Origin: a virus
IMG/VR virus record: IMGVR_UViG_3300045988_141012
DNA length: 64,000 bases
Strand: one strand, 5' to 3'
A model generated the notes under the pieces. The model did not search any database. It was not told the DNA's origin and saw nothing but the letters and a program-made list of their open reading frames with translations. Positions 41,711 through 47,170 of this stretch are shown piece after piece. The stretch's first letter is position 1. The number at the start of each line of letters is the position of its first letter. The translations under genes and the position numbers were made by a program.

Positions 41711-42943
41711 TTACAAATTTATAATTACAGGATGTGAATATGCACCCACTATCTCATTTGCTTTCACATTTGAGAATACTTTGCGCATTATTTGAAATGC
41801 CCCATTAACATCGGCATTTATATATTTTCCGTTGTTGCTTCTAAAAAGCCCTCTATAGACTCTTCGTAATTTGTTGTAATTTTCTTTTATAGGTAATTCA
41901 TCATCTAAGAAAGATGTTCCTGATGTATAAGTCTCTTCTGTTTCAATTAAATCAATGCCAACCTCTTCACATTTGTATTCAAGTTTTTTAATGAAACTCT
42001 CATACGGTATTTGAGTAAATGTTTGATTAACAACCTTATGCATATTTGATTTCTGTTTCCAACCATCGTTTTTACCAATAATAAGTGTTCCAATATTATG
42101 ATTTACACAATAGTCAACGACCCACCTACTTGTACAATGCATGAAATATTCCATCTTGAAATATCTTTTATTCGTGAGATTTTGCATCCGTTTAGTCCAA
42201 TCCGATCCATTTATAGCTTTCGCAATTCTTCTTAGATTAGAAACTTTCTTATTCCAATATTGGTTATAAGATTTGATTCCTTTGCCATTTATAACAATAG
42301 AAGGTTCTTCTATGTTATTTACCATTGTTACAAAGTTGTTTATTCCTAAATCAATTGAGGAGATTCTGTTTCTATCCAAATTATTTATAAACTGCTTTTC
42401 ATCCCTATAGACAATTTCAATAATGTAACAACCACCCTTAGGAATAATTCTTGTCCCAAGATGATAGCCTATAACTTTTGTGTGAATAAGATTATTGTAC
42501 TTCTTCATTCTTTTAAAAGAAAAATATAAATATCCATCTTTAATATGTGTCTGCATATTAGTCAATGTGCAAATAAATCTGCCATCTTTCTTTTTATAAG
42601 CAGGAATTTTAGGTTTACCCAAATACTTTTTGGGATGCATCGTGTAATCTTTAACTGCTACAAGAAATGATTTCCATGACTTACATAAAGATTTTGTAAC
42701 CATCTGTGCTGCATTTGATCCAAGTTCCACAAAAGCGTCAGTATGCTTTAATTCCTTATTCAAGACACCATACTTCTTAACTGTCTTTGTTCTGAAGAAC
42801 TCTTGCCGAATTGTATAATTACAAAGGTTATACATGTTCTTTGCCAAAAAGCATAAATTATCACAAGCTAAATACATTGGATGATTTTTGTTGATTATAT
42901 GTCTCTCTACTTTATTAAAATTAATACCCCCTTTACTTAACAT
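41711..42943 (-). CDS. tnpB: TnpB (IS200/IS605-family RNA-guided nuclease, OrfB)
   Basis: RuvC-I SIDLGINNFVTMV, RuvC-II ETEETYTSGTSF and RuvC-III INADVNGAFQIMRK. The track ORF extends to TTG 42994. ATG 42943 is preferred because upstream codons overlap a methyltransferase remnant. No tnpA in the window. Confidence 0.8.
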   Translation of the reverse strand: MLSKGGINFNKVERHIINKNHPMYLACDNLCFLAKNMYNLCNYTIRQEFFRTKTVKKYGVLNKELKHTDAFVELGSNAAQMVTKSLCKSWKSFLVAVKDYTMHPKKYLGKPKIPAYKKKDGRFICTLTNMQTHIKDGYLYFSFKRMKKYNNLIHTKVIGYHLGTRIIPKGGCYIIEIVYRDEKQFINNLDRNRISSIDLGINNFVTMVNNIEEPSIVINGKGIKSYNQYWNKKVSNLRRIAKAINGSDWTKRMQNLTNKRYFKMEYFMHCTSRWVVDYCVNHNIGTLIIGKNDGWKQKSNMHKVVNQTFTQIPYESFIKKLEYKCEEVGIDLIETEETYTSGTSFLDDELPIKENYNKLRRVYRGLFRSNNGKYINADVNGAFQIMRKVFSNVKANEIVGAYSHPVIINL

Positions 42944-42948
42944 ATTCT

Positions 42949-43252
42949 CTATTTTATAAAACTTAATATATGAGATATTACTGAAACCGTCCAACCATTA
43001 CCAATACTTGTGCTTCGGAAACACCGTCGCAGAATGTATAATTATCAGGCAATGTTTGCAATCGATCTGCTACTGTTGTATTTAATTTTCTCACCTCATT
43101 TCACATCAAATACAATCCAGTACATGCACCAAGTCCACCGCCATTCGTTGTAATCGAACAGGCAATGCCCTCACTGCTATATACTCTGTATCCTTGTTTA
43201 TAATTTCGTGAAAGTTGTTTACCGTCCTTTAACCACATATTACTATCAACTC
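42949..43252 (-). pseudogene. C-terminal remnant of a C5-cytosine DNA methyltransferase
   Basis: Motifs in order: QGYRVYSSEGIACSITTNGGGLGACTGLY, in-frame TGA (43091-43093), RKLNTTVADRLQTLPDNYTF, then a frameshift into IGNGWTVSVISHI (motif X). No N-terminal catalytic half. Confidence 0.65.
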
Positions 43253-43264
43253 CACCAACAAAAA

Positions 43265-44767
43265 TTAATTCATTGGCGGTTTCTGAAAATTTATCATTTT
43301 CTCATCGGTACAAACATATGTATTATCGTACTGAGCTTTATAAAGGTGTTCTGCTAATAATGAAATAACAGTTGTTACAATACTATTTCCCGACTGTTTA
43401 TATCCTTGAGAATCTGACATACCGACCGCCTTACATCTTTCATAATCAATGTCATCAAAACCCATAAGTCTATGTGCTTCTTTAGGAGTAAGTTTTCTCA
43501 CCACTCTAAGGTTATTTCTTTCAACCTTTGGCTCTGTATTGCCACCTCCACAAGTATGCATTGTTGGTGCAATACCGTCTTCGCTATATACTCTGCGAGA
43601 TTGTTCATTCGTTTTTTGAAATCTTTCGCTACATAAATCAGCAATATGAATTAAATTATTTGAATCTGCAAAAATCTGTTTAGGTTGTTTATAATCTGTT
43701 GCCACCAATGCACCCATAATTGCATCTTCCTTATAAACTAAATCCCTCTGACCTATAGTTCTAAATTCAGGTTTTGTTGTGCCAATAATATTCTTCTCGA
43801 ATTTGGAATCGGTAATTTGAAGTCTTTGTTGTACCTCATCAGATAAAAAATATTTTTCCAAAACATCTTTATCTGTTTCTAATAAATCCTTTAATCTGAT
43901 TCCTGTATCAAATGGTTTTGGAAATGTAAATAACTTTGTATCAATATCTTTACGAATTGATATACAAAAAATTCTATTACGATTTTGTGGAATACCTGCA
44001 TTCTTCGCATTAATTGTTTGATAATATGAATTGTATCCAAGATTATCAAGTCTACCAATCCAATCCTTAAAACTATCAATATATTTTTTCGATATAAGAG
44101 CATCGACATTTTCCATAAGTAAATATTTTGGCAATGTATTATTCTCTTTTGCCGTTACAAGAAGTCGTTCAACTTCATACAACAAACCCGAACGAGTTGA
44201 TTTAATATTATGGCTACCACAATTGGGACAAGTATAACGAGTATCAACATCTAATTCTGATGGATTATATTCACACTCACAATCTTGACAAGTCCATTTT
44301 AAACCCTCTTGTTTGCCAGCGATTGAAAGATCAGTACAGGGTGTAGAGTATGTAAGTAAATCGCTATATGGAAGGGATTTTATTTGCATCATATCTCCAA
44401 GATTATGTGATAGATAATCTGCTAACCAATATTTTTCAATTCCTTTTGTTTTATCTTTTCTTCGCGATAATTTTTCCCAATCATATGGCTTGTCTTTCTT
44501 AAAATCATATCCAAGTCTTTTATCTGTTAGTTCTTTGACCATCATTTCTTTACTCGGATAATCTGCATAATTTTCTATCATATCAGTGGTTAAGCCACAA
44601 TGTATTGCAGCGTAACTGACTACTACTTCTTTATCCAAATCTGCTGTTGCAATCATATTAGCATTGAACAAGTGAGTATTATTTATACCTTTCATCTGTG
44701 CTCCAATGCCACTACAAAGTTCAATAACTGTTAAATTTTCTAATAAATTATTTTTCTCTGTGTTCAA
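43265..44767 (-). CDS. C5-cytosine DNA methyltransferase with zinc-ribbon insertion (orphan)
   Basis: Motif I ELCSGIGA, motif IV STPCTDLS, motif VI LMENV, motif VIII QNRNRIF, RKLTPKEAHRLMGF and GNSIV. A CxxC...CxxC insert (WTCQDCEC...CPNCG) lies between motifs IV and VI. TTG start. Confidence 0.85.
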   Translation of the reverse strand: MNTEKNNLLENLTVIELCSGIGAQMKGINNTHLFNANMIATADLDKEVVVSYAAIHCGLTTDMIENYADYPSKEMMVKELTDKRLGYDFKKDKPYDWEKLSRRKDKTKGIEKYWLADYLSHNLGDMMQIKSLPYSDLLTYSTPCTDLSIAGKQEGLKWTCQDCECEYNPSELDVDTRYTCPNCGSHNIKSTRSGLLYEVERLLVTAKENNTLPKYLLMENVDALISKKYIDSFKDWIGRLDNLGYNSYYQTINAKNAGIPQNRNRIFCISIRKDIDTKLFTFPKPFDTGIRLKDLLETDKDVLEKYFLSDEVQQRLQITDSKFEKNIIGTTKPEFRTIGQRDLVYKEDAIMGALVATDYKQPKQIFADSNNLIHIADLCSERFQKTNEQSRRVYSEDGIAPTMHTCGGGNTEPKVERNNLRVVRKLTPKEAHRLMGFDDIDYERCKAVGMSDSQGYKQSGNSIVTTVISLLAEHLYKAQYDNTYVCTDEKMINFQKPPMN

Positions 44768-44869: not shown

Positions 44870-45654
44870 TTATTTTGAATAATGCTGTATGTATTTTAAA
44901 TTATTTTGATGTACAAACAATTTTTCTGTGACTTTAAACTGATTGTTTTTGTTTACATCTAAAGTTCTTGTAAATGGTTTACTCCAAATTGCCACAAAAT
45001 CATCTGGTGCATTTTGTTCGGAGATAAACACAATATGATCTTTGCTTGTTTCTCTCATATAATTCCAAAATTCGTTTGAGTCAAATTTTTCTTTTCCATA
45101 CCCTGTTGTTCCATTATACGGAGGATCGGCATATACTACGCAATTTTGCGGAAGTTCTACCTCACGATAATCTTTGCATATAAATTCCGCATCCATAAGA
45201 GTATTCATATCCTTTAACAACGATCTTTTGCTCTGGGCTGCATAATTTGTTCCTGTTTTATTCCTTGCATATCCGCCAAACCATTTACCTCCAAACGAAC
45301 ATCCAAATCCTACAAACCCAGCTAAAACTTTATCCTCGTCCTTATGTTCTTTTATATACTTATAATCATCTACAGATATATTCTCTGGCAAATCATATCC
45401 ATGTTTAACCCCATTTAAGAGTTCAATCAAATATTCATGTTTATCATTTAATATTTTTCTTGCAAATCCATCAACTTTACTTTCTATTGAACAACTTCCA
45501 CAGAAAAGACTTACAAATGTCAGATTATCCCCCCCCAGTTCCTGTTATTATCATTGCAATTTGTTTCGCTATTCTTGATTTTCCACCTTGGTATCTCATT
45601 TATTACCTCCGAAATTTGTTTACTAATTCGACTTTTACCGCCTAAATATTGCAT
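44870..45654 (-). pseudogene. Dam-family (D12 class) N6-adenine DNA methyltransferase, frameshifted in a G8 tract
   Basis: The N-terminal fragment MQYLGGKSRISKQI... stops 3 codons after the G8 run. The C-terminal fragment (track ORF 44870..45430 and upstream codons) carries TFVSLFCGSCS, ILNDKHEYLIELL and DPPY. One extra G (or two fewer) joins them in frame. Confidence 0.75.
45529..45536. repeat. C8/G8 homopolymer inside the Dam-family gene
   Basis: ttatCCCCCCCCagtt on the + strand. The downstream frame opens only 5 codons before the run, so the frame change must occur here. Confidence 0.9.
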
Positions 45655-45846
45655 ATTATATTCGGAGCGTGTACACTTTAAAACGTTACTCAATACCTTT
45701 CTTAATATTGTTATAGATGTTTGCAACCATCTAAATAAAATTTATAATCTAAAATTGAATTATCGGGCGAATAGCCCAAAGACGTAGTAAATACTACATG
45801 AAATTATTCTCTATTTAAAAATCAAAATGAAAGCAAAATTTCAAGC

Positions 45847-46236: not shown

Positions 46237-47097
46237 TTAAACTCTCACGCCAACACATTCATAAAATATATCAGCATCAAAATACGGTAATGACTTAATA
46301 AATTCTTTATCATCATCGCTAACATCTTCATCCCACCATTTTTGCTTGTCAGCTTCAACTATTATTGTTTTGATATATCCGCCAATAGTTTCACATTCAG
46401 GGTGTCTAATAATTTCTTCTTCATTCATTTCGCTTTTGTCAATAAAATCCGAATATTTATATGATTGAGGACAATCCAATAAAATCTCGTTAAATCTAAC
46501 TATTGACTTATCATTAAAATCAAATTCAGTTTCATGATTAAACATTCTCACTTTAAGTGAATTTGTATTACAATATCCGCTGTTATAATTTCCGCTGTTC
46601 CAATTTCCACTGTTCCAATATCCGCTGTTATAATCTCCGCTGTTACGATTTCCGCTGTTACACTTTCCGCTGTTCCAATATCCGCTGTTATAATCTCCGC
46701 TGTTACGATTTCCGCTGTTACACTTTCCGCTGTTCCAATATCCGCTGTTATAATCTCCGCTGTTACGATTTCCGCTGTTACGATCTCCGGAATTTCCTTT
46801 TCCAGTATTACACATATCCAACACTTCACTCCACTTCAATTCTTTTAAGATAACTATCTTATTTGTGCAACACTTAGAGTTGGTATCATCAAAATCAATT
46901 TCTCCTATTGCCTCAATTTCAGCCACCTTATTGTTTGGGTCAAATGAATAATAATTAAAGCAATCTACCAATTTTTCACAAAAATGAAAACCTACCTTAC
47001 AACACTTTGGATTTTCTATTATCTCATAAGTCTTTCCAATTTCATATTGATAACCTCTGCATGTCCAATCTGAATTAAATACTTTATAACCTTTCAT
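46237..47097 (-). CDS. pentapeptide-repeat protein (NSGxx repeats)
   Basis: Start moved to ATG 47097 (AGGAGG 7 nt upstream). The central ~85 aa are GNSGDRNSGNRNSGDYNSGYWNSGKCNSG... with strict 5-residue periodicity. Confidence 0.7.
   Translation of the reverse strand: MKGYKVFNSDWTCRGYQYEIGKTYEIIENPKCCKVGFHFCEKLVDCFNYYSFDPNNKVAEIEAIGEIDFDDTNSKCCTNKIVILKELKWSEVLDMCNTGKGNSGDRNSGNRNSGDYNSGYWNSGKCNSGNRNSGDYNSGYWNSGKCNSGNRNSGDYNSGYWNSGNWNSGNYNSGYCNTNSLKVRMFNHETEFDFNDKSIVRFNEILLDCPQSYKYSDFIDKSEMNEEEIIRHPECETIGGYIKTIIVEADKQKWWDEDVSDDDKEFIKSLPYFDADIFYECVGVRV
46561..46800. repeat. in-frame tandem repeat (15-nt unit; perfect 60-nt copies)
   Basis: 46621-46680 and 46681-46740 are identical, and 46741-46781 continues the same unit. 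Encodes the pentapeptide repeats. Confidence 0.9.
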
Positions 47098-47170
47098 TTT
47101 AAATTCCTCCTTATAATTGATTACAATCATCTTCATTGAATATAATTGTATTCATATATACATTCTCTTT

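Follow-up and report, generated by a model that had tools for sequence, protein, structure and literature searches.

Phase-variable methyltransferases are a textbook bet-hedging device of bacteria. In the phasevarions of Haemophilus, Neisseria and Moraxella (Type III mod genes) and of Campylobacter (Type IIG cj0031; PMC4889913), an intragenic repeat, poly-G among them, toggles a methyltransferase and yields subpopulations with different methylomes. In Haemophilus influenzae lic2A, start codons lie in two frames upstream of an intragenic repeat (2007 work, cited in PMC3116884). In phages, the first experimental demonstration of contingency loci is a 2025 preprint on T2 agt and T4 rIIA (Gomez, Barrick & Waters, bioRxiv 2025, PMC12633550), which also mentions poly-G tracts in receptor-binding genes of Fletchervirus and in the methylase gene of one phage. 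Our literature search found no description of a phage Dam-family methylase with a simple sequence repeat (SSR) switch, nor of a gene in which a duplicated, dual-coded catalytic N-terminus serves such a switch. Here we analyse a poly-G tract in a predicted methyltransferase gene within 64,000 nucleotides of the IMG/VR virus record IMGVR_UViG_3300045988_141012 (the whole stretch is hereafter called the window). We conclude that the gene is very probably a slipped-strand contingency locus with a dual-coded N-terminus and three states, that it encodes a D12-class methylase and that it belongs to a large phage or prophage from gut Clostridia.

Results

Three reading frames converge on one tract

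Coordinates are those of the 64-kb window, which has a GC content of 31.5%; the switch gene lies on the minus strand. The G8 tract (45536-45529) occupies the linker between motif X and motif I of the encoded enzyme and is in the OFF phase. It is the sole G/C homopolymer of at least 7 nucleotides in the window, where an analytic estimate from composition predicts about 0.1 runs of at least 8. Given this solitary occurrence, the low expectation and the coincidence of its site with other simple repeats in relatives (see below), the tract is not a product of chance.

Three reading frames, here termed A, B and C, meet at the run. Frame A (45654-45520, minus strand) begins at ATG 45654 with one copy of motif X (MQYLGGKSRISKQI) and then runs out of frame through the second copy, motif B, which serves it as a linker. 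It reads MQYLGGKSRISKQISEVINEIPRWKIKNSETNCNDNNRNWGGII and in the G8 state stops at TGA 45522-45520, the third codon past the run. Frame B (45599-45525, minus strand) begins at ATG 45599, eight nucleotides past a Shine-Dalgarno (SD) sequence GGAGG (45610-45606, minus strand) that is embedded in the frame-A coding sequence. It carries its own copy of motif X (MRYQGGKSRIAKQI), reads MRYQGGKSRIAKQIAMIITGTGGG and in the G8 state stops at TAA 45527-45525. Frame C (45544-44870, minus strand) is the methyltransferase body. It opens at Q 45544, three codons (QEL) ahead of the Gly codons, and reads DNLTFVSLFCGSCS ... ILNDKHEYL ... VVYADPPYNG up to its stop at 44872-44870. The body is intact, with motif I FCGSCS at 45505-45488 (FCGGLS is the counterpart in T4 Dam), ILNDKHEY at about 45448-45434 and motif IV DPPY at 45127-45116, all in frame C of the minus strand. 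The N-terminal motif Y-x-G-G-K-S-R-I-x-K-Q-I is coded in both upstream frames, the two copies lying 55 nt and one frame apart.

A sequence-only reading of the window had already recognized the G8 tract and the frame break on the minus strand, the frame-A stop at the third codon after the run, and the joining of frame A to the body by a gain of one G or a loss of two; all of this holds. It had placed the opening of the downstream frame five codons before the run, where we count three. More consequentially, it described a simple ON/OFF device with one start and overlooked the second start at ATG 45599. Because two overlapping N-termini lie in two frames, two of the three phases are ON. Loss of one G (G7; also G4 and G10) joins frame B to the body and gives a 242-aa protein, and this, rather than the G9 form from the first start, is the canonical in-frame form. 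With one G more or two fewer (G9, G6), frame A joins the body in a protein of about 258-261 aa (261 aa from the window sequence), whereas at G8 or G5 neither start is joined to it. The isoforms differ by a 19-residue loop, carried by the long one, plus a Q/R residue.

Motif X is part of the cofactor/DNA pocket in Dam-type enzymes. We propose that the repeat occupies a dispensable linker between motif X (YxGGKSRIxKxI) and motif I (FCGSCS), where polymerase slippage by one G would move the gene round a cycle of three heritable states, according to tract length modulo 3. At n = 1 mod 3 (G4/G7/G10), start B plus body would produce the canonical enzyme of 242 aa. At n = 0 mod 3 (G6/G9), start A plus body would produce the enzyme of about 258-261 aa, with motif B read as a floppy 19-residue loop. 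At n = 2 mod 3 (G5/G8), both starts would end one to three codons past the tract and no enzyme would be made. From the OFF state of G8, a one-base slip either way would restore an enzyme. Because a part that the enzyme cannot do without is encoded ahead of the repeat, a second start codon of the H. influenzae lic2A kind would not suffice by itself, and the duplication of motif X would be needed.

The gene encodes a predicted Dam-family enzyme

The product is predicted, from its motifs and profile matches, to be a D12-class (Dam-family, alpha group) N6-adenine DNA methyltransferase, an assignment in which we agree with the sequence-only reading. The B-plus-body read-through scores 63.4 bits against Pfam PF02086 (cutoff 22), with profile positions 1-64 matched contiguously, and the A-plus-body form scores 50.7 bits; intact relatives also carry PF02086. 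The motif order X - I - IV is present, with YxGGK occurring twice at the N-terminus. An AlphaFold2 (AF2) model of the window-clade long isoform has a predicted local distance difference test score (pLDDT) of 81 and a predicted template-modelling score (pTM) of 0.82. The motif-A helix (residues 8-23) is confidently modelled, and scores fall below 50 over the out-of-frame motif B (residues 26-39), in keeping with a loop. The short isoform (pLDDT 82.5) has the same core. Both isoforms are presumably active.

The top Foldseek matches are E. coli Dam, T4 Dam and DpnM (probability 1.0, template-modelling (TM) score about 0.5), and of the solved structures T4 Dam gives the best match in sequence (E 4e-6). 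These enzymes (1YF3 for T4 Dam, 2G1P for E. coli Dam, 2DPM for DpnM) share with the predicted protein the fold and the order of motif X, motif I, the target recognition domain (TRD) and motif IV DPPY. They differ from it in that identity to these GATC enzymes is only about 15-21%, at the modest TM score just given, and in that repeat tracts and duplicated N-termini are absent from all of them.

Tract length varies among near-identical genes

Genes that are otherwise nearly identical, from dozens of independent human-gut assemblies, span G4 to G10 and include every phase. The 90%-identity protein cluster of the window gene has 294 members, and these record a range of tract lengths. B-plus-body proteins reading ...ITGTGDNL, ...ITGTGGDDL and ...ITGTGGGDDL correspond to G4, G7 and G10, and A-plus-body proteins reading ...NRNWGDNL and ...NRSWGGDDL to G6 and G9; interrupted variants are found too. 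N-terminally truncated open reading frames (ORFs) of 183 or 186 aa in the cluster are what gene callers make of the OFF state, and the 186-aa ORF of the window itself is found letter for letter in other assemblies. At the DNA level, ten contigs with an OFF allele, drawn from different samples, match the window at 99% identity along 230 nt; eight have G8 and two have G5. Samples with G8 include the BOOL22/SAYO22 metagenomes. Logan contig L191 (SRR13837355) is identical to the window along 270 nt except for the tract, where G6 gives the long isoform. Searched with one exact protein sequence per state, a public collection contained the OFF form in 106 index blocks, the long form in 61 and the short form in 69. 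Among the matches listed, at most 10 places for each of the OFF, long and short alleles, no sample held two states.

These data bear on the possibility that the G8 is an error of sequencing or assembly and that the real phage has G7 (or G6 or G9), an intact gene and nothing switched off. Poly-G runs are error-prone on several platforms, and G7 is the state of most window-clade contigs in IMG/VR and the JGI metagenomes. Counting against an error, an ENA metagenome scaffold has the exact window allele including G8, though its sample may be the same one, and G8 recurs in eight further contigs from different samples and assemblers as well as in L011. Lengths from G4 to G10 across many assemblies and assemblers are not sequencing noise, and together with the many-unit (GA)n variation described below they go far beyond the error behaviour of Illumina data. 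The variable tract would stand even if the window record were wrong. We consider an error at this position quite unlikely.

Different repeats occupy the same site in relatives

In diverged relatives (55-80% identity), the same site between motifs X and I is filled by G6-G13, (GA)4-(GA)14, (AT)8 or C8, which code for peptides as unrelated as GGG, ERERE(R) and IYIY(IY). Unlike repeats with unrelated peptides at one site imply that the DNA repeat, and not the peptide, is conserved. The convergence of different simple repeats on one orthologous site bears the signature of selection for hypermutability.

All three states exist in nature. The 58 distinct dual-N-terminus loci from IMG/VR comprise 27 short (B+C), 14 long (A+C) and 16 OFF loci and one with both starts in frame; in 16/16 OFF loci the body is intact through DPPY. 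GTDB genomes contributed 12 OFF, five long and four short loci, and three with both in frame. A homology search with the hypothetical A+C protein retrieved 2,917 proteins at E <= 1e-20, and among the best 120 cluster representatives long forms number about 60 and short forms 46. The long-form representatives carry EIPRWKIKNSET, that is, motif B read one frame off. The switch locus is widespread in phages and prophages of gut Clostridia. Phase variation, as the sequence-only reading had proposed it, is strongly supported by the lengths of G4-G10 between near-identical flanks and by varied repeats found in all phases; what that reading gave was an incomplete account of the switch.

Two variations on the arrangement were seen among relatives. 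In some lineages (L031, L087, L094, L098, L100, L101, L113, L149, L151, L152, L156 and L162), a second poly-G run (G7-G12) lies between motif A and ATG-B and overlaps the ribosome-binding site of start B. With two tracts per locus, the number of possible states multiplies. In a few cases (L098, L152, L154, L167 and protein P0144), both motif copies share one frame and are translated one after the other.

Selection maintains both N-termini

Codon-position entropy was calculated for 22 distinct sequences with the 55-nt spacing. In the A-only region it is 0.57/0.36/1.17 in frame A, and in the motif-B region it is 0.45/0.22/1.21 in frame B; in both, variation is concentrated at third positions. 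This pattern shows that each motif copy is under purifying selection in the frame that encodes it. As the motif-B region varies at frame-B third positions, the frame-A reading of motif B behaves as an unconstrained linker.

That linker is nevertheless kept free of stops. A third-position T in a B codon creates a frame-A stop if the next codon begins with AA, AG or GA, and we refer to such positions as hazard sites. T was found at 1/84 hazard sites in dual loci versus 15/41 in relatives with a single N-terminus (Fisher 9e-8). At harmless sites of the same dual sequences, T was present at 34/215 (1e-4 versus hazard sites). Frame A is open as far as the repeat in 77/78 loci.

Could the window instead hold a plain pseudogene, frameshifted and decaying, whose upstream motif X is the stub of an older Dam gene left by a cassette swap? 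The gene is out of frame from both starts, and its neighbourhood is mosaic, relatives having a PF01555 methylase where the window has a Dcm-type gene and a TnpB-like gene. Yet the body carries no further lesion, the OFF ORF is preserved letter for letter in the 106 index blocks mentioned above, and the bodies of the OFF loci of relatives are intact without exception. In 14 IMG/VR loci, five genomes and about 60 of 120 protein clusters, the supposed stub reads in frame into the body, and in its own frame its variation is third-position-biased. Only where motif A exists is frame A kept clear of stops across motif B, which argues strongly against motif A as a relic. Decay of the gene is, in our estimation, extremely improbable. 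Instead, the window appears to hold the OFF state of a conserved switch and not a dead gene.

Genomic setting

The window comes from a large phage and encodes a DNA polymerase, a DnaB-like helicase, exonuclease V, an NAD ligase and NrdD. Human-gut metagenomes contain close relatives of the methylase, as do IMG/VR contigs of 60-158 kb, and one copy lies within a 2.0-Mb NCBI contig. The records nearest to the window in the collections searched are without the methylase gene. More distant relatives are found in genomes and metagenome-assembled genomes of gut Clostridia, including the isolates Ruminococcus sp. YE282 (G8, short form), Flintibacter muris DSM 110149 (G11, long form) and Acutalibacter caecimuris M00118 (G8, long form). 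A nucleotide search of the INPHARED phage collection gave no match, and a protein search of the same collection gave only relatives at no more than 42% identity.

Downstream of the Dam-like gene, at 41711-44767, the window has a TnpB-like gene and a gene for a Dcm-type C5 cytosine methylase of 500 aa that contains a zinc-ribbon-like insert. Close relatives (L054-L063, L202-L211) have a PF01555 N4/N6 methylase at this position instead, and the differing methylase genes suggest that the methylase block is a swappable cassette. A second switch in the downstream PF01555 methylase of relatives, considered because 247- and 261-aa forms are annotated, was rejected: the DNA is identical and only the starts chosen by the gene caller differ.

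Four neighbouring ORFs were scanned against Pfam or PHROGs and proved to be the C5 methylase, TnpB, a zinc-ribbon protein and a DUF7666/pentapeptide protein; none of the four is Res-like, the smaller ORFs in between lying outside the scan. The methylase looks like an orphan. The DUF7666 protein is encoded at 46237-47136 on the minus strand, and its pentapeptide-repeat centre (NSGxx units) is written in near-perfect tandem DNA repeats, making this gene another length-variable candidate near the methylase.

Several palindromes are rare in the window relative to maximal-order Markov expectation: GGCC (1 observed, 52 expected), GCGC (5 and 28), CGCG (5 and 23) and CTAG (24 and 69). GATC is also depleted (53 observed versus 191 expected), which speaks of pressure on GATC sites and is silent on the target of this enzyme. 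Strong avoidance of these five palindromes indicates a phage under heavy host restriction pressure.

Discussion

The locus combines a hypermutable repeat with two overlapping N-termini, so that a change of tract length can exchange one form of the enzyme for another or abolish it. Switching within a clonal population is presumably fast. The benefit would be bet-hedging of phage or lysogen methylation in the face of hosts of which some restrict unmethylated and others methylated DNA.

Several observations weigh against this interpretation or temper it. Pattern scans of IMG/VR and the JGI metagenomes returned G7 13 times, GGAGGGG three times, G8T and GGGAGGGGGA once each (both in frame) and G8 once (OFF). 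In these unbiased DNA scans of the window clade, G7 was thus present in 13 of 19 contigs and only one further G8 was found. The G9 long-form contigs (L192-L201) are without the downstream PF01555 gene and are all below 50 kb; the G7 short-form contigs (L202-L211) have that gene downstream and reach 125 kb. Because the two sets differ downstream, tract state is partly correlated with sub-lineage, which tempers claims about switching rate. Length differences between assemblies could reflect slower change at the level of lineages. In addition, start A has no SD sequence in the window clade, and a TATAAT stands directly ahead of it. On these grounds, the long form may be poorly made in this clade.

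The TATAAT belongs to a promoter-like element, TTTAAA-16-TATAAT (45655-45682, minus strand), which ends 1 nt ahead of ATG-A and is a consensus match only. The region upstream of ATG-A has promoter-like matches no more often than its shuffled versions do, and we treat the element as a lead and not as evidence. If it were used, transcripts would begin inside ORF A and start B would be the sole translatable start. Most other lineages do have an SD sequence at start A. Ahead of ATG-B, GGAGG or GGAG is present in 42/65 distinct dual loci. With GGAGG at start B and no SD sequence at start A, the two ON states of the window clade may differ in expression level.

Correction at the level of RNA or the ribosome deserves consideration as well. 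Under transcriptional slippage or programmed frameshifting, a G8 genome would still make enzyme and the DNA changes would be secondary. In bacteria, RNA polymerase can slip on homopolymer runs of at least eight, A/T runs being the best-documented case. Moreover, a usable N-terminus in both neighbouring frames would make a slip of +1 or -1 productive. Counted against these points, heritable differences in length are observed directly in the DNA, and the repeat of many relatives is (GA)n or (AT)n, substrates for DNA slippage and not known signals for frameshifting or RNA slippage. At most, such correction would add leakiness to the OFF state, and we think it very improbable as the main explanation. 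The slipped-strand contingency locus remains our preferred reading.

Might the two N-termini do more than rescue each other? The two motif copies (45654-45579 in the window) differ systematically: in 39/43 distinct pairs, the position just ahead of the invariant Tyr holds Q in one copy and R in the other (35 Q/R, 4 R/Q). Aligning the motifs (K9-W10-A-G-G-K14 in E. coli Dam with R/Q2-Y3-x-G-G-K7 here) places this residue at the position of Lys9. The 19-residue loop of the long form adjoins this contact. The K9A mutant of E. coli Dam is reported to methylate non-GATC sequences (PMC6567924). Taken with the Q/R residue at this position, that phenotype raises the possibility that the isoforms differ in target or stringency. 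One repeat would then toggle between a first specificity or stringency, a second and none, the two N-termini giving enzymes that differ in DNA recognition. We offer this tentatively and think it rather unlikely; shared ancestry of the arrangement could also explain the Q/R pattern.

The wider meaning of the locus lies first in where it occurs: abundant gut Clostridia (Ruminococcus, Oscillospiraceae, Flintibacter, Acutalibacter) have phages and prophages that bear such a switch in their own methylase gene. The locus is also a natural case of overlapping coding that selection keeps purely for the sake of a frameshift switch. We predict that methylomes vary heritably within gut phage populations and among lysogens, which would matter for restriction escape, for sensitivity to Type IV restriction and for the use of N6-methyladenine (m6A) to link phages to hosts in metagenomics. 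As relatives occur in cultured isolates, the prediction is directly testable. The switch also accounts for the frequent annotation of these genes as truncated ORFs, pseudogenes or proteins of odd length.

Compared with known systems, the locus resembles the phasevarions in its mode of action, a methyltransferase being likewise toggled there. Those genes encode beta-class Type III Mod or Type IIG enzymes, sit on bacterial chromosomes and have two states. The present enzyme is of the alpha class (D12) and so lies outside the Type III mod phasevarions, which are defined by a beta-class Mod with Res; its gene resides on a phage or prophage and has three states and two N-termini. The phage loci of PMC12633550 resemble it in that reversible homopolymer frameshifts in phage ORFs give heterogeneous progeny, a form of bet-hedging against host defence. 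They differ in having A/T or short homopolymers and simple on/off behaviour in coliphage and vibriophage genes; no methyltransferase was studied in that work, which describes neither dual-frame rescue nor the convergence of repeat types on one site.

In the use of two starts, there is a parallel with lic2A and lic1A. They too have a 5'-proximal intragenic repeat, with two phases translated and one off and with differential expression from the starts possible (PMC3116884). Here the two starts are ATG 45654 and ATG 45599, and both fusion products exist in nature; the parallel is one of analogy and not of homology. The lic2A and lic1A genes are bacterial lipooligosaccharide (LOS) genes, not homologous to the methylase, and the residues upstream of their repeat are dispensable. 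In the methylase gene, by contrast, the repeat has a unit of 1 or 2 nt and lies downstream of an essential catalytic motif, and so the motif itself is duplicated and dual-coded.

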